A DNA stretch of 64,000 bases from an uncultured delta proteobacterium. GTDB taxonomy: Bacteria > Myxococcota_A > Polyangia > Polyangiales > Polyangiaceae. The DNA lies in the NCBI GenBank assembly GCA_963782055.1, contig CAWAIF010000003.1:2848001-2912000 (forward strand). Reading direction: 5' to 3'. Every line of letters begins with the position of its first letter. The first letter of the stretch is position 1. Shown piece after piece: positions 3-5,479 of this stretch. The notes beneath the pieces are model-generated. The model searched no databases. It saw only the letters and a list, made by a program, of their open reading frames with translations, and was not told the DNA's origin. The translations under genes and the position numbers were made by a program.

Positions 3-584
3 AAGAAGCTGCCGGCTCAGCCGTTCGCCGCGTGGATGGCGAAGCTGGGGCTGGGAGCGGGGATGGCGCAGGCCACTCCCCCGGTGGCGGTCCCCCACGC
101 ACCGCCGCACGGCGCCCCCAAACCGCCGGGGCAACCGCAGCCTACAGCGCAGCCGCACGGGGCGAAGGACGACGAACCGCTCCTCGGGCGGCGTCACGAC
201 CGCCGCGACGACGACCTGGATCCGCGCGCGCGGCACGCCGCGCAGCTCGCGCCTCCGGCGTACGTCACGCCGCTCGCGCAGCCCGCGCCCCCGCCACCGG
301 CCGACGCGCCCGCCGCGGCGCAGGCGCACGCCTCGCTGGAGGAGCTGCTGCCCGCCCTGGTGCGTCGCGTGGCCTGGTCGGGGGACGGCAAGCGCGGCAC
401 GGTGCGGATGGAGCTCGGCGCGGGCGAGCTCGCCGGAGCGACGCTGCTCGTGTCCTCCGACGCCGGCCGCGTGCGCGTGGAGCTGAACGCCCCGCCCGGC
501 ACCGACGTCACCGCGTGGAAGGACCGGCTCCGCGCGCGGCTGGAGTCGCGCGGCCTGAGCATCGAGTCGCTCGAAGTGACCTGA
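3..584 (+). CDS. FliK/SctP-like hook- or needle-length control protein, C-terminal part (5' end probably outside the window)
   Basis: Frame is open from base 3. A Pro/Gln-rich linker precedes a FliK_C-like domain (TVRMELGAGELAGATLLVSSDAGRVRVELNA...LRARLESRGLSIESLEV). Confidence 0.6.
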   Translation, partial: KKLPAQPFAAWMAKLGLGAGMAQATPPVAVPHAPPHGAPKPPGQPQPTAQPHGAKDDEPLLGRRHDRRDDDLDPRARHAAQLAPPAYVTPLAQPAPPPPADAPAAAQAHASLEELLPALVRRVAWSGDGKRGTVRMELGAGELAGATLLVSSDAGRVRVELNAPPGTDVTAWKDRLRARLESRGLSIESLEVT

Positions 585-590
585 GCCGGC

Positions 591-1595
591 CTACGCCTCG
601 CCGAGGACGCGCAGGGCGTTGCCGCGAAGGATCTTGCCGATGACGCGCTCGGGGATGCCGGCCTCCAGCATCGCCGCGGTGAGGTGCGGCAGGCCGGTGG
701 GATCGGCCAGCTCCCGCGTCGGGACGATGAAGCCGTCCCAGTCGCTGCCCAGCGCGGGGCAGTCCTCGCCCACCACGTGCAGGATGTGCTTCATGTGCTT
801 GACGACCGGCTCCAGCCCGCCGCCGCCGAGGTAGCGCGGGCAGAAGATGACGCCCACGACGCCCCCGCGGTCCGCCACGGCGCGGAGCTGCTCGTCGTCG
901 ATGTTGCGCCAGTGCTCGAAGGCGCCCAGCACGCCGGTGTGGCTGACGATGAGGGGCCTGGTGGCGATGGCGCACGCGTCCATGAAGCCCGGCTTGTTGA
1001 TGTGAGCGAGGTCGACGATGACGCCCAGCTCCTCGCAGCGCGCCACGACGTCGCGGCCGAAGGGGGTGAGTCCGAGATCGCGGCGGCCGCGGCCGTACGC
1101 GGGGTAGCCGACCTCGTTGGCCGTGAAGTGGAGCAGCCCGAGGTAGCGCAGGCCGCGGCGGCGCCAGCCGTCCAGGCGCCCGATGTCGCCCTCCAGCGCG
1201 TGCGCGCCCTCGACGCCGAGCAGGGCGCCGAGCGCGCCGTCGCGCTGCGCGGCCTCCAGCTCCTCGCGCGTGCGCACCAGGCGCAGGTCGTGGGTGTGAG
1301 AGAGGGTCTGCTCCATCACGTCCAGCTGCTCGTCGATGGCGCGCGCCAGGCCGCGCACGCGGCCGAGGATCGGCAGGCTCACCATGGTGAAGAACTGCGC
1401 CCCCATGCCGCCGTCACGCATGCGAGGGACATCGACGTGGCCGCCCAGCGCGGCGCGCGGCAGGGGCGGCGTGTGGCGGTTGAGCAGGTCGTAGCCGACG
1501 AAGCGCCCCCACATCAGCGTGTCGGCGTGGAGGTCGATCGAGGGGTAGCGCGCGTGGATCGCGAGCGCTTCGGGGGAGACATCGGTCTCGGCCAT
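591..1595 (-). CDS. Membrane dipeptidase (peptidase M19)
   Basis: Motifs DLHADT, GHVDVPRM, LGVEGAH, DLAH, SHTG, RNIDD, GSDWDG. Confidence 0.92.
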   Translation of the reverse strand: MAETDVSPEALAIHARYPSIDLHADTLMWGRFVGYDLLNRHTPPLPRAALGGHVDVPRMRDGGMGAQFFTMVSLPILGRVRGLARAIDEQLDVMEQTLSHTHDLRLVRTREELEAAQRDGALGALLGVEGAHALEGDIGRLDGWRRRGLRYLGLLHFTANEVGYPAYGRGRRDLGLTPFGRDVVARCEELGVIVDLAHINKPGFMDACAIATRPLIVSHTGVLGAFEHWRNIDDEQLRAVADRGGVVGVIFCPRYLGGGGLEPVVKHMKHILHVVGEDCPALGSDWDGFIVPTRELADPTGLPHLTAAMLEAGIPERVIGKILRGNALRVLGEA

Positions 1596-1637
1596 CGCCG
1601 CGGAGCATAGCGCGCGTGTGTGCTAAGGTGCGGCTGC

Positions 1638-2606
1638 ATGGCAGCTCTGCCGCCCCCGATGGTCTGCGAGGACGTGCTCGAGCTCGTCGGCGGGACGCCG
1701 CTGGTGAAGGTCCGCACGCTGGGGCGGGAGGCGCCGCGGGCCGAGGTGTGGGCGAAGATGGAGCAGCAGAACCCCGGTGGCTCGCTGAAGGACCGCATCG
1801 CGGTGGCCATGCTGGACGCCGCCGCGGCCGACGGCCGCCTGCGTCCGGGGGGCGTCGTCATCGAGCCGACGAGCGGCAACACCGGCATCGGCCTGGCCAT
1901 CGCGTGCGCGGTGCGCGGCTACCGGTGCGTGCTGACGATGCCGGAGAGCATGAGCCTGGAGCGCCGGCAGCTTCTGGAGGCGCTGGGCGCCGAGCTCGTG
2001 CTCACCCCCCAGACCGAGCAGATGGAGGGCGCCGTCGCCCGGGCGCAGGCGCTCGCGGCGGAGACCGAGGGCGCCTTCATGCCGCACCAGTTCGAGAACC
2101 CGGAGAACCCGGGTGCGCACGCGCGCACGACGGCGTGGGAAATCCTGGAGTCCATGCGGGAGCTGTCGGTGGACGCGCTCGTCGCCGGCGTGGGGACCGG
2201 CGGCACCATCAGCGGGGTCGGCAAGACGCTGCGCGAGCAGCTGGGCGCGCGCGCGTCCGGCGGGCCCCTCGTCGTGGCGGTCGAGCCGGAGGCGTGCGCC
2301 ACGATCTCCCGCGGCGAGCGCGGCCCGTCCAAGATCCAGGGCCTGGCGGCCGGCTTCGTGCCCTCCAACTACCACCCTGACGTGGTGGACGGCGTGCGCA
2401 CCGTGAGCGACGAAGACGCGTGGCGCACCAAGGTGGCGCTCGCGCGCCGCGAGGGGCTGCTGGTCGGCATCAGCTCGGGGGCCGCCGTGCACGCGGCGCT
2501 CGGGGTGGCGCGGGAGCTCGGGCCCGGCAAGAACGTCGTCACCGTGCTCTGCGACACCGGCGAGCGCTACTTCAGCCTGGCGACGTTCTTCGCGGAGGTC
2601 GCGTGA
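1638..2606 (+). CDS. cysK: Cysteine synthase A (PLP-dependent)
   Basis: NPGGSLKDR (PLP Lys), [37 protein letters not shown] at 1638. Confidence 0.93.
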
Positions 2607-3322
2607 GCGAGCGCCGCGACGCGCGGGTGCTGGTGGTGGGCGTGGGCGGCCTGGGGTGCCCGGCCGCCACCGTGCTCGCGCGCGCCGGCGTTGGTTTGCT
2701 GCTGCTCTGCGACGACGACGTCGTGGAGGAGGCGAACCTGCACCGGCAGGTGCTCTTCGACGCCTCGAGCGTGGGCAAGCCCAAGCTGGAGGAGGCGAAG
2801 GCCGCGCTGGAGCGGCTGGCGCCCGGGACGCGGGTGGAGCTCGCCCGGACGCGCTTCGTGCCCGGCGTCGCGCTGGAGCTGCTGGAGAACGTCGACCTCG
2901 TCGTGGAGGGGGCCGACAATTTCGCGACCAAGTTCCTCGTGGCCGATGCGTGCGGGCTTGCATCGGTGCCTGTCGTGCACGCCGCCGCCATTCGCTGGAA
3001 CGGGACGGCGCTGGCGGTCGCGGCCAAGGGCCGGCCCTGCTACCGGTGCCTCTTCGAGGACATCCCCTTCGAGCAGCAGGCGAGCTGCGCGGAGGCGGGG
3101 GTGGTGGGGCCCATGGTGGGGGTCGTCGGCGCGGTGGCGGCGGACCTGGGGCTGCGGCTGCTGGACGGCGCCGCCGCCGGGACCCTCGTCACCTACGATG
3201 CCCGGACCGACCGCATGCGGCGGCGGGTGGTGCCGCCTCGCCGGGACTGCCCCCTCTGCGCCACTCGCCGCATCGAACGTATCGACGAAACGCGCTACGT
3301 TCGGGGCGACGCGAGCCCCTGA
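2603..3322 (+). CDS. moeB: ThiF/MoeB/E1-family adenylyltransferase lacking the N-terminal RxxRQ segment
   Basis: GVGGLG, NLHRQ, ADNF, CYRC, SCAEAG, CPLC. GTG overlaps the cysK stop (GTGA). Confidence 0.9.
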
Positions 3323-3372
3323 GAGGGCCCTCGCGGACCTCCGAGAGAGAACGGAGCATCCAAGGAGCGATC

Positions 3373-3645
3373 ATGGAAACCATCGTGCGCATCCCCGCCC
3401 CCCTGCGGACCCTCACCGGCGGCAAGGACGAGGTGTCCGCGTCGGGCAAGACGGTCGGAGAGGTCATCGACGATCTGGAGACGAAGCACCCCGGCCTGAA
3501 GGACCGCCTGCTGGACGAGAAGGGCGTGCGGCGCTTCGTCAACATCTACGTGGGCGAGGAGGACGTGCGCTTCCTCGAGGGCCTCGCCACCGAGCTGCGC
3601 GCGGGCGATCAGCTCAGCATCGTGCCCGCCATCGCGGGGGGCTGA
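3373..3645 (+). CDS. Ubiquitin-like sulfur carrier (MoaD/ThiS/CysO family)
   Basis: 90 aa, RFVNIYV...DVRFLEGL...IVPAIAGG with C-terminal GG. AAGGAG RBS upstream. Confidence 0.93.
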   Translation: METIVRIPAPLRTLTGGKDEVSASGKTVGEVIDDLETKHPGLKDRLLDEKGVRRFVNIYVGEEDVRFLEGLATELRAGDQLSIVPAIAGG

Positions 3646-3647
3646 GC

Positions 3648-4004
3648 GTGGCCGACCGTCACGCGCGCCAGATCCGCCTCGCCGAGGTGGGCGAGGAGGG
3701 GCAGGCGCGCCTCGAGCGGGCGAGCGCCCCCATCACCGAGCGTGGCGTCGCCGGCGAGACGATGGCGCGCTACCTGACCGCGGCGGGCATCGGTACGCTG
3801 ACCGTGGACGACGACACGCACGAGCAGGCCGTCCGGGCGATGAGCGATGCCACCGGCGTGGTGCGCGGCCCGGTGGGCGCGCCCGCGCCCGACGGCGACC
3901 TGGACGATCTCCACCCCGCCGCGCGCGACGTGGCCCGGGGCGCGCGCGGCGCGGTGCGGGTGCTGCGGCGGGTGTGGCTGCGCGAGGAGCCGAAGGGGTC
4001 TTGA
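3648..4004 (+). CDS. Small degenerate ThiF/MoeB paralog (inactive E1-like subunit)
   Basis: DRHARQIRLAEVGEEGQARL matches the MoeB N-terminus and AAGIGTLTVDDD is kept. No GxGGxG, NLxRQ or Cys. Fills the gap between cysO and cysM exactly (TTGA overlap). Confidence 0.75.
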   Translation: MADRHARQIRLAEVGEEGQARLERASAPITERGVAGETMARYLTAAGIGTLTVDDDTHEQAVRAMSDATGVVRGPVGAPAPDGDLDDLHPAARDVARGARGAVRVLRRVWLREEPKGS

Positions 4005-4951
4005 GCGGAAGGACGGTCCGCGCCCGCCGCATCGAGTCGGTGGTCGACGCGGTGGGCAACACGCCGCTGGTGCGGCTCCGGCGGGTCGCGCCGGACGCGC
4101 GGGGCGTGTCCGTCTACGCCAAGCTGGAGTTCTGCAACCCCGGCGGGAGCGTGAAGGACCGCGCGGCGCTGCGCATGATCACCGACGCCATGGCCGACGG
4201 CCGCCTGCGCGAGGGCCGGACGCTCATCGACTCCACGAGCGGCAACACCGGCGTCGCCTACTCGCTCTTCGGAGCGGTGTTCGGGCTGAAGGTGCAGCTC
4301 GTGATGCCCTCCAACGTCTCCAGACCGCGCAAGGACATCGCGCGCGCCTTCGGCACCGAGATCGTCTTCTCCGACCCGATGGAGGGCTCGGACGGCGCCA
4401 TCCGGCAGGCGCGGGAGATCGTCGCGGGAGACCCGGGGCGGTACTTCTACCCGGACCAGTACGCCAACCCGTCCAACCCGCTCGCGCACTACGAGGGCAC
4501 CGGCGCGGAGCTGCTGGCCGCGCTGGGGGATCGCATCACCCACTTCGTGGCGGGGCTCGGGACGAGCGGCACGATGATGGGCACCGCTCGCCGGCTGCAC
4601 GAGCGCTCGCCGGCGATCCGGTGCGTGGCGGTCCAGCCGGCGGAGCCCATGCACGGGCTGGAGGGGCTCAAGCACATGGCCACCAGCCTGGTGCCCGCCA
4701 TCTACGACCCGTCGGTGCACGACGAGATCATGGAAGTGACCACCGAGGACGGCTGGGACATGGCCGACCGCCTCGCCGCAGAGGAAGGGCTGCACGTCGG
4801 GCACTCCTCCGGCGCCAACGTGTGGGCGGCGGTCCGCATCGCCGAGGGCCTCGCCGCCGCCGGGCGCGAAGGTTGCGTCGTAGCCGTGGTGGCCGACCGC
4901 GGCGACCGGTATTTCGCGCCGATGAAATGGGAAAGGCGCTACGTTTGGTGA
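4001..4951 (+). CDS. cysM: Cysteine synthase B / CysO-dependent sulfhydrylase
   Basis: NPGGSVKDR, STSGNTG, GLGTSGT, HGLEGLK, SSGAN, DRGDRY. Confidence 0.88.
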   Translation: MSGRTVRARRIESVVDAVGNTPLVRLRRVAPDARGVSVYAKLEFCNPGGSVKDRAALRMITDAMADGRLREGRTLIDSTSGNTGVAYSLFGAVFGLKVQLVMPSNVSRPRKDIARAFGTEIVFSDPMEGSDGAIRQAREIVAGDPGRYFYPDQYANPSNPLAHYEGTGAELLAALGDRITHFVAGLGTSGTMMGTARRLHERSPAIRCVAVQPAEPMHGLEGLKHMATSLVPAIYDPSVHDEIMEVTTEDGWDMADRLAAEEGLHVGHSSGANVWAAVRIAEGLAAAGREGCVVAVVADRGDRYFAPMKWERRYVW

Positions 4952-4957
4952 CCCGAA

Positions 4958-5479
4958 ATGCGTGACGTGGTCAAGCATCCGTGGGCGCGTGACGGCGTGA
5001 GGATGACGCGCGCGGTGGCCCAGCGCGTGGAGCAGGAGGCGATCGCCGCCTACGCGAAGGACGAGGAGAGCTGCGGCCTGCTCGTCGGCCCGTCCGCCGA
5101 CGCGCTCCTGGTCGACGCCACCGTCCCGATGCACAACCGCGCCAACAAGCTGCACGCGCTCGACCCGGAGACGTACCCGCGCACCGGCCGGATGTACTTC
5201 GACATCGACCCGCTCAAGTTCCAGAAGGCCATCGCCGCGGGCGAGGCGGAGGGACGCCCGGTGAAGGTGCTCTACCACTCGCACCTGGACGCGGGCGCTT
5301 ACTTCTCCGAGACGGACGCCGCGGCGACGACGATGGGCGGCGTCGAGCCCGCGTACGACCTGGCGTACCTGGTGACCAGCGTGCGCGAGGGCAAGGTCGA
5401 CGATCGCAAGCTCTTCGTGTGGGACCCGGACGCGCGCGCCTTCGCCCCTGCGCCGCTGGTGGTCGTGGACGCCCCGTGA
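4958..5479 (+). CDS. JAB/MPN (Mov34) metalloprotease, Mec-like CysO-cysteine peptidase
   Basis: EESCG...YHSHLDAGAYFSETD JAMM motif; operon context. Confidence 0.88.
   Translation: MRDVVKHPWARDGVRMTRAVAQRVEQEAIAAYAKDEESCGLLVGPSADALLVDATVPMHNRANKLHALDPETYPRTGRMYFDIDPLKFQKAIAAGEAEGRPVKVLYHSHLDAGAYFSETDAAATTMGGVEPAYDLAYLVTSVREGKVDDRKLFVWDPDARAFAPAPLVVVDAP

Follow-up and report, generated by a model that had tools for sequence, protein, structure and literature searches.

How might an E1 enzyme activate its carrier protein when the helices that bear its arginine finger are missing from its own chain? The question is raised by a compact gene cluster in a 64,000-nt stretch (positions 2,848,001 to 2,912,000 of contig CAWAIF010000003.1, G+C content 74%; hereafter the window, meaning the whole stretch of DNA that was analysed) from an uncultured member of the Polyangiaceae in the phylum Myxococcota. 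In this cluster a short E1 of the MoeB/ThiF type, a CysO-like ubiquitin-fold sulfur carrier and a small protein are encoded one after the other. Our analysis indicates that the small protein very probably pairs with the short E1 and supplies the arginine helix that the latter lacks. The cluster as a whole is likely to specify a CysO-type protein-thiocarboxylate route to cysteine, in which the activating enzyme would be an asymmetric E1 encoded by two genes.

The short E1 and the small protein encoded after its carrier

The short E1 of the window matches positions 19-237 of the 238 positions of the Pfam ThiF profile (PF00899; cut-off 28.1 bits, score in Table 1), and its residues 5-220 align to residues 30-248 of Escherichia coli MoeB (PDB 1jw9_B) with an E-value of 9.4e-40. 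Since the alignment begins only at MoeB residue 30, MoeB residues 1-29, including R14, are without a counterpart: the protein opens with strand β1 and the glycine loop (GVGGLG, residues 13-18), and the N-terminal arginine-finger helices are absent. The further motifs of the domain are present, namely NLHRQ (45-49), CYRC (146-149), SCAEAG (161-166) and CPLC (216-219). By alignment R48, K61 and D105 correspond to the ATP-binding R73, K86 and D130 of MoeB, the zinc cysteines are C146, C149, C216 and C219, and C162 is the loop cysteine. A preliminary description of this locus had reported an E1 at position 2603 that starts near the nucleotide-binding strand and has NLHRQ, both CxxC pairs and the SCAEAG cysteine, but no N-terminal RxxRQ helix; each of these features was found where it had been placed. 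No domain other than ThiF was detected with Pfam in either the E1 or the small protein, and the E1 has no rhodanese domain.

Orthologs of the short E1 with 45-70% identity were recovered from 30 of 41 related genomes. In all 30 the residues G13, G15, G16, D37, D39, N45, R48, Q49, K61, D105, C146, C149, C162 and C216 are invariant, while C219 and, in the interface helix, G173, G176, A177 and A180 are nearly so. None of the 30 has an RxxRQ helix encoded in frame before the glycine loop, contrary to the possibility, raised in the preliminary description, that orthologs normally carry their own; the loop lies 2-21 residues past the chosen start codon, and the in-frame stretch upstream of the start of the window E1 falls within cysK. 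The clade also shares a conserved tail past the second CxxC pair (E1 residues 220-239, window positions 3260-3319; consensus I......RY), with a nearly invariant Y232. MoeB ends at this point, and the tail lies outside the interface predicted below.

The small protein carries DRHARQIRLAEVGEEGQARL. It matches the ThiF profile over its first 53 positions (E = 2.2e-6; 27.4 bits, just below the 28.1-bit cut-off) and the NCBIfam models of MoeB, ThiF and UbaA with E-values down to 3e-10, at scores far below their whole-protein cut-offs. Its residues 4-57 align to MoeB residues 11-65, which places R7 on MoeB R14. The arginine-finger helices (R4, R7, Q8 ... G15, G18, Q19) are followed by a degenerate β1-αA-β2(-αB-β3) half-Rossmann unit without the glycine loop, and the C-terminus is formed by a GAxxAxxxLR helix. 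There is no GxGGxG (the corresponding sequence is ERGVAGE) and no cysteine. The preliminary description was accordingly right in locating the missing segment in this open reading frame (ORF) and in noting the want of a glycine-rich loop and a cysteine. The action in trans that it stated for MoeB R14 agrees with the excerpted text of PMC13139853, where R11 of ThiF acts from the neighbouring subunit and R14 of MoeB is the same arginine finger. Its term "split" E1 is imprecise: ThiF positions 19-53 are present in both proteins, which argues for a duplication followed by reciprocal loss rather than for a simple split.

A profile of the small family, searched against 1.84 billion representative sequences (50% identity), gave 9158 matches at E <= 1e-3 and 966 at E <= 1e-10. 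The top 150 representatives are all 91-145 residues long and match the profile over its full length, so that the family has at least 150 standalone members; in public annotation these are unnamed, "adenylyltransferase" or hypothetical. An alignment of 156 members shows near-invariance in the N-terminal part (R4 in 147, R7 in 154, Q8 in 138 with histidine in 18, L11 in 153, G15 in 152, G18 and Q19 in 155 each) and again in the middle and C-terminal parts (Y42 in 154, G47 in 156, G98 in 151, A99 in 146, A102 in 153). Just two of the members keep GxGGxG, and the aspartate positions of β2 are not conserved. What selection has preserved is therefore the finger helices together with two helices of the fold, whereas nucleotide binding has not been retained. 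The ratio of nonsynonymous to synonymous substitution rates (dN/dS) of the small gene has a median of 0.25 and a range of 0.14-0.40 (Nei-Gojobori method; 56 of 78 pairs with dS 0.05-2, from 13 genomes of one sister genus). The gene there is thus under purifying selection, the absence of which the preliminary description would have counted against its proposal. A search for related loci, started from an alignment of 11 sequences, gave full-length matches solely from Polyangiaceae, Labilithrix, Polyangiales, Myxococcales and "Deltaproteobacteria" metagenome-assembled genomes (MAGs). Its matches in other phyla were rejected as members of the family, being the N-termini of ordinary MoeB/ThiF genes.

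Predicted fold and complex

The AlphaFold2 (AF2) model of the small protein is confident (predicted local distance difference test, pLDDT, 91.3; predicted template modelling score, pTM, 0.84) and consists, in order, of two N-terminal helices, β1, αA, β2, αB, β3 and a long C-terminal helix (90-111). With VIA-align it superposes on Uba4 (6yub_B; Z 11.7, root mean square deviation 3.2, 117 aligned residues, chain range 10..237) and on MoeB (1jwa_B; Z 10.0, deviation 3.1, 114 aligned, chain range 6..217), followed by APPBP1 (Z 9.2), SAE1 (Z 8.6) and 8tz0 (Z 8.4). These matches imply that the small protein is an adenylation domain minus its middle, with about half of the domain present. Its C-terminal helix is equivalent to a helix of MoeB whose end lies near residue 217, and this is also the helix aligned to residues 170-187 of the short E1.

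The complex of the E1 (30-row alignment), the small protein (31-row alignment) and ATP was predicted with an ipSAE (interaction prediction score from aligned errors) of 0.92 (0.93, 0.92 and 0.92 in the individual runs), as against 0.05 for the best of three controls; the control in which chain 1 was exchanged for an unrelated protein scored 0.00. The mark applied to this score is reached by 116 of 157 solved complexes and by 2 of 215 mismatched pairs. At least 98% of the contacts agree between runs, and the pLDDT of the partner is at least 89. The heterodimer put forward in the preliminary description is in this way a high-scoring prediction. The predicted interface involves E1 residues 20-29, 43-53, 131-132, 162-184 and 200-205, and residues 2-11, 34-47, 64-65, 84-107 and 111 of the small protein. 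Contacts are tightest between E1 170-181 and residues 88-103 of the small protein, the two stretches being in antiparallel register. When residue j of the small protein is mapped to residue j+78 of the E1, the pattern G-A-x-x-A-x-x-x-L-R superposes, with G98, A99, A102, L106 and R107 falling on G176, A177, A180, L184 and R185. Under this mapping the contacts (E1 residue given first) mirror each other, 174-99 with 177-96, 181-92 with 170-103 and 178-96 with 174-100, while 177-99 lies on the axis. Such mirrored contacts would mark a pseudo-twofold axis between two homologous helices of the modelled complex. In the same prediction the finger helix of the small protein (2-11) touches the NLHRQ segment of the E1 (43-53), the home of the ATP-binding R48.

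These predictions can be accommodated in a simple mechanism. In MoeB and ThiF homodimers the N-terminal helices reach across and set an arginine on the ATP of the neighbour, and it is these helices that the short E1 has lost. The small protein would replace the second protomer at the twofold interface of the E1, with its C-terminal helix packed antiparallel on E1 helix 170-184, and would thereby lay its RxxRQ helix (R7 being the equivalent of MoeB R14) in trans beside the NLHRQ ATP motif. The large subunit would bind ATP and the tail of CysO, and the outcome would be a heterodimer with a single site that adenylates the C-terminal Gly-Gly of the carrier. As to origin, one protomer may have lost catalysis after a duplication, whereupon the helices of the active protomer, now serving a dead site, would have become dispensable and been lost. 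The dead protomer, for its part, would have shrunk to the finger helices, half of the Rossmann sheet and the helix at the dimer axis.

The gene pair, its natural fusions and its surroundings

A homolog of the small ORF stands directly after cysO in 28 of the 30 loci with a short E1, as judged with a hidden Markov model (HMM) to which 3 of these 28 had contributed sequences. In one of the remaining two (L025) the sequence stops inside cysO, and in the other (L048) the HMM missed an ORF with RRFVRQ...GAFAAVETIK that is visible by eye at the expected place; the small gene is conserved in this sense, as the preliminary description had supposed. Of the 30 loci, 22 have a cysK homolog ahead of the E1, 22 a cysM homolog after the small ORF and 3 a Mec gene immediately after it. 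The order E1-cysO-small-mec is further met with in 4 genomes from 3 other families of the phylum. A phylum-wide profile search at E <= 1e-12 had picked out 64 of 251 genomes, a figure that was rejected as a count of the small family, full-length E1 N-termini having matched as well: 5 of the 10 loci inspected from it (L139-L143) proved to hold ordinary full-length enzymes. A quick maximum-likelihood tree unites the 30 short E1s of the order in a single clade (SH-aLRT, the Shimodaira-Hasegawa-like approximate likelihood ratio test, 96), to which the full-length rhodanese-MoeB paralogs encoded in these genomes do not belong. All short E1s may share a single origin.

The two proteins have also become joined in nature. 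In a contig from the family of the window (L038 of genome G009, 3-944, minus strand) the E1, a linker of about 25 residues and the small domain are read in one frame, with no cysO between them. Complete proteins of this type are P0160 (359 residues, on two contigs) and P0163 (366 residues, an NCBI record from a Polyangiaceae MAG named "HesA/MoeB/ThiF family protein"). A second fusion of E1 and small protein occurs in a distant family of the phylum (genome G051; L138, 3601-4851, minus strand). The E1 of the G009-type fusion is nested among unfused E1s on the tree, and we consequently regard this fusion as secondary. Fusions of this kind are classical evidence that two proteins act together, here at a ratio of 1:1. 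A joint MAFFT alignment of the fusion with both families was discarded, as it placed the small proteins onto the E1 part.

Other rearrangements were seen at individual loci. In a genome of the window's own genus (G002; L026, about 1498-2445, plus strand) the short E1 continues into cysO in the same frame and without a stop, giving a product of 316 residues that ends in AIAGG, an apparent E1-carrier fusion or else an assembly error of the MAG. At L035 (G013; 369-1193, minus strand) it is the small ORF that runs without a stop into the Mec/JAMM protease, with no cysM between (275 residues), and at L037 and L042 mec rather than cysM stands directly after the small gene. The CysO of G019 (L027) ends in AIAGGRG, two residues past the diglycine, which would have to be removed, presumably by the JAMM protease, before activation.

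In the window the genes form a tight, operon-like row, cysK-E1-cysO-small-cysM-mec (Table 1).

Table 1. The gene cluster in the window, in order of position
Feature	Coordinates	Strand	Remarks
cysK-type cysteine synthase, 328 aa	1620..2606	+	First gene of the cluster; Pfam PALP 257 bits; NCBIfam TIGR01139 cysK 362 bits (above its 351-bit cut-off)
Short E1, predicted catalytic subunit, 239 aa	2603..3322	+	MoeB/ThiF-type adenylation domain; Pfam ThiF 200.6 bits
CysO/SAMP-like ubiquitin-fold sulfur carrier, 90 aa	3373..3645	+	Pfam ThiS 65.3 bits; NCBIfam SAMP1 62.3 bits (above its 60-bit cut-off)
Small protein, putative mini inactive E1 subunit, 118 aa	3648..4004	+	ThiF profile positions 1-53
cysM-type pyridoxal phosphate (PLP) enzyme	4001 (TTG start; or GTG 3974)..4951	+	Pfam PALP 213.7 bits
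Mec-like JAMM/MPN metalloprotease, 173 aa	4958..5479	+	Pfam Prok-JAB 42.8 bits (above its 25-bit cut-off)

The GTG start of the E1 overlaps the stop codon of cysK (GTGA), and the GTG start of the small ORF lies 2 nt past the stop codon of cysO. The tight packing pointed out in the preliminary description is therefore real at this gap, while the TTGA overlap with cysM that it also invoked holds only if cysM starts at its TTG codon and not at the alternative in-frame GTG. The carrier ends in AIAGG, that is, in Gly-Gly. For the cysM-type enzyme the top NCBIfam model is TIGR01138 cysM (336 bits, under its 394-bit cut-off). CysM of a CysO-CysM-Mec pathway takes CysO-thiocarboxylate and O-phosphoserine as substrates, and the window enzyme is presumed to be such a CysO-thiocarboxylate-dependent cysteine synthase. 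The Mec-like protease matches the NCBIfam desampylase model with E = 4.5e-9, under the cut-off of that model. None of the ORFs of the window places an E2-like gene in the cluster. Directly upstream of cysK, and divergent from it, an M19 membrane dipeptidase homolog is encoded on the minus strand (591-1595; Pfam Peptidase_M19 261.6 bits); it might have a connection with the salvage of dipeptides that contain cysteine.

The organism also keeps an E1 of canonical form. This second enzyme is complete, with 406 residues (G000:C3:6156609-6157829; L021, 1081-2301, plus strand), and has an N-terminal rhodanese domain followed by a MoeB domain with its own RYSRH helix, RYSRHILLPEVGEAGQ. It is a candidate for the sulfur donor or for the activator of MoaD or ThiS. 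In the more distant families with the order E1-cysO-small-mec, short E1s with a C-terminal TusA sulfurtransferase domain were found at L134 (G163; 4306-5220, minus strand) and L137 (G218; 1065-2219, minus strand), with Pfam TusA scores of 51.6 and 50.1 bits respectively; this suggests a route by which sulfur reaches the carrier there. The window E1 is without TusA.

Alternative explanations and known E1 systems

An active/inactive, pseudo-symmetric heterodimer is thus supported by the predicted complex, by the match to the MoeB fold and by the natural fusions. From the same data we infer physical binding of the two proteins, the contact of R7 with ATP and a need for the small protein in activity. 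Several observations weigh against this interpretation. The homology of the C-terminal helix was missed by hhalign: a comparison of the small and short-E1 families gave one match only, of 38 columns (E = 0.027), over β1-αA-β2. The likeness to the MoeB dimer helix that had been proposed in the preliminary description consequently rests on the structural alignment and the pattern of contacts. The complex was run with custom alignments and ATP, outside the calibration of the tool, and its score shows likeness rather than binding, because the predictor may reproduce solved MoeB, ThiF and E1 dimers. The dN/dS values come from another genus, the small proteins of the window's own genus being only 36-48% identical and too diverged for such an estimate. 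In an AF2 model of the fusion P0160, made from an alignment that covered the E1 part only (pTM 0.76), the E1 domain was confident but the linker and small domain were left at pLDDT 29-80, a result that is uninformative on docking of the domains. The short E1 has retained its own side of the dimer interface and may instead form a homodimer. Finally, the arginine fingers R14 of MoeB and R11 of ThiF are described as not essential in the excerpted part of PMC13139853 (2026), according to which Tcd1 R59A cuts activity by just 26% and E. coli TcdA is without a finger. Because of these reports the missing arginine need not disable the E1, and of the obligate active/inactive E1 put forward in the preliminary description it is the heterodimer that gains support from prediction, fold and fusions, while the word "obligate" goes further than the data.

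The last two of these points lend themselves to another explanation, namely that the short E1 is a homodimer that works without an arginine finger, with the small protein as an accessory (for example titrating the E1 as a regulator, or serving as an adaptor for Mec or CysM) and not as a catalytic partner. The near-invariance of G173, G176, A177 and A180 is in accord with this, as is the in-frame run of the small ORF into Mec in one MAG. However, conservation in the small family is highest precisely at the arginine-finger motif (R7 in 154 of 156) and the interface helix, the predicted site is the twofold interface itself, which would make binding of the small protein and homodimerisation mutually exclusive, and the fusions fix a ratio of 1:1. 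We consider this explanation unlikely, if deserving of attention. Rather less plausible still is an alpha2-beta2 assembly, in which an E1 homodimer would accept one small protein per protomer, each docking its N-terminal helices in the gap left by the truncation, as in the complementation of split proteins. Compared with MoeB, the E1 is truncated at its N-terminus by no more than about 29 residues, and it is this very segment that opens the small protein. Yet the small protein also repeats ThiF positions 19-53 and has a conserved C-terminal helix, for which there would be no room beside a full second protomer, and the tightest predicted contacts are made by that helix (88-103 on E1 170-181), beyond the N-terminal ones.

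It is improbable to a high degree that the small protein partners another E1, such as the full-length rhodanese-MoeB enzyme, or some other protein, its position in the cluster reflecting co-regulation. The genome does encode the complete 406-residue ThiF-family enzyme, but that enzyme already owns a finger helix; synteny between the small gene and the short E1 holds at all loci that could be evaluated, the two are fused in two lineages, and the unrelated-protein control for chain 1, which was not the paralog, scored nil. That the small ORF is a functionless, decaying 5' remnant of a full-length E1 gene, as its restriction to the first 53 ThiF positions and its score just below the Pfam cut-off might hint, can practically be dismissed in view of the at least 150 diverged standalone representatives with near-invariant motifs, the dN/dS of about 0.25 in the sister genus, the confident compact fold in AF2 and the synteny kept across the order and beyond, and here the preliminary description, which took the gene to be maintained and not debris, was correct.

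Returning to the heterodimer, we can phrase the proposal in its full form: with its roughly 100 residues the small protein would be the smallest inactive adenylation domain in nature. It would act as an activator that is both obligatory and stoichiometric, completing a MoeB-type enzyme devoid of the finger helices to a heterodimeric E1 with one site. Its origin would lie within Myxococcota, separate from that of the eukaryotic pairs, in a duplication followed by reciprocal loss, and in some lineages it would later have been re-fused into a single active-inactive chain. For this proposal in its entirety we judge the case for and the case against to be evenly poised.

With E. coli MoeB and ThiF (PDB 1jw9/1jwa and 1zud) the large subunit has in common the fold and all the ATP, zinc and cysteine residues, and the small subunit overlays MoeB 6-217. 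The excerpted text of a 2025 review in the Journal of Biological Chemistry (PMC12355090) presents these two enzymes as symmetric homodimers with two active protomers, each of which owns a finger helix, whereas here the finger helix and the catalytic site are on two gene products and one protomer is cut to about 100 residues. The likeness to the CysO-CysM-Mec system of Mycobacterium tuberculosis lies in the clustering of a ubiquitin-fold carrier that ends in GG, a CysM-type PLP enzyme and a JAMM protease. In that bacterium the activator and sulfur donor is MoeZ, a full-length E1 to which a rhodanese domain is fused. Unlike MoeZ, the E1 of the cluster has neither finger helix nor rhodanese domain, and here a cysK lies within the cluster. 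To our knowledge the small subunit has no counterpart in the mycobacterial CysO system.

The predicted pairing also recalls eukaryotic APPBP1-UBA3 (for NEDD8) and SAE1-SAE2 (for SUMO), in which one active and one inactive subunit of the adenylation fold are combined. In eukaryotic heterodimeric E1s the inactive subunit is said, from work of Walden in 2003 and of Lois and Lima in 2005, to donate an arginine. In the excerpts of PMC12355090, Arg57 and Arg515 of hUBA1 hold the gamma-phosphate site. Unlike the eukaryotic E1s, the present system has no catalytic-cysteine domain, ubiquitin-fold domain (UFD), E2 or thioester relay, its inactive subunit measures 95-145 residues as against more than 300, and its product is presumably a thiocarboxylate where theirs is a conjugate. 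The resemblance is hence one of function and not of membership in the same clade, and the asymmetry of this E1 appears to have arisen independently of eukaryotes, inside bacteria (Myxococcota).

A ThiF-family precedent for a heterodimer of paralogs is provided by yeast Tcd1-Tcd2, the system of ct6A formation, where according to the excerpted text of PMC13139853 the non-catalytic partner gives an arginine finger to the ATP site of the catalytic one. That pair differs, in the same excerpts, in that both proteins are full-size, the substrate is tRNA t6A and not a ubiquitin-fold protein, and the finger is non-essential. Single-chain Uba1 unites inactive and active adenylation domains (IAD-AAD) in one chain, and the P0160, P0163 and G051 fusions can be viewed as single-chain versions of the present pair. 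PDB 8tz0, which we take to be the E1 of a bacterial antiphage system, presumably has such a single-chain pseudo-dimeric architecture too. The fusions differ in their order, active domain before inactive, in their minimal inactive domain and in lacking an E2 and a cysteine domain. The literature searched, outside which older comparative-genomics papers on E1-like proteins may lie, yielded no account of a bacterial sulfur-carrier E1 that is encoded by two genes.

The E1 enzymes are the textbook case of a transition from a symmetric bacterial homodimer, as in MoeB and ThiF, to an asymmetric pair of active and inactive subunits in eukaryotes. The same transition appears to have taken place in a bacterial cysteine-biosynthesis operon, with the inactive partner pared down to about 100 residues. 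If this is true, the annotation of hundreds of small proteins would have to be corrected, which are now unnamed or labelled "adenylyltransferase" although unable to bind ATP through a glycine loop. The pair would offer a minimal, tractable system for what a second protomer contributes, be it the arginine finger, stability of the dimer or binding of the carrier, and a clean test of how much the finger, reported as not essential in MoeB and ThiF, counts in a protein where it is mainly this that selection has retained. The least that an E1 needs of a second protomer would be delimited as well, namely the finger helices, half a Rossmann sheet and the helix at the axis, and E1 asymmetry would be seen to have originated convergently in a sulfur-carrier system of primary metabolism.

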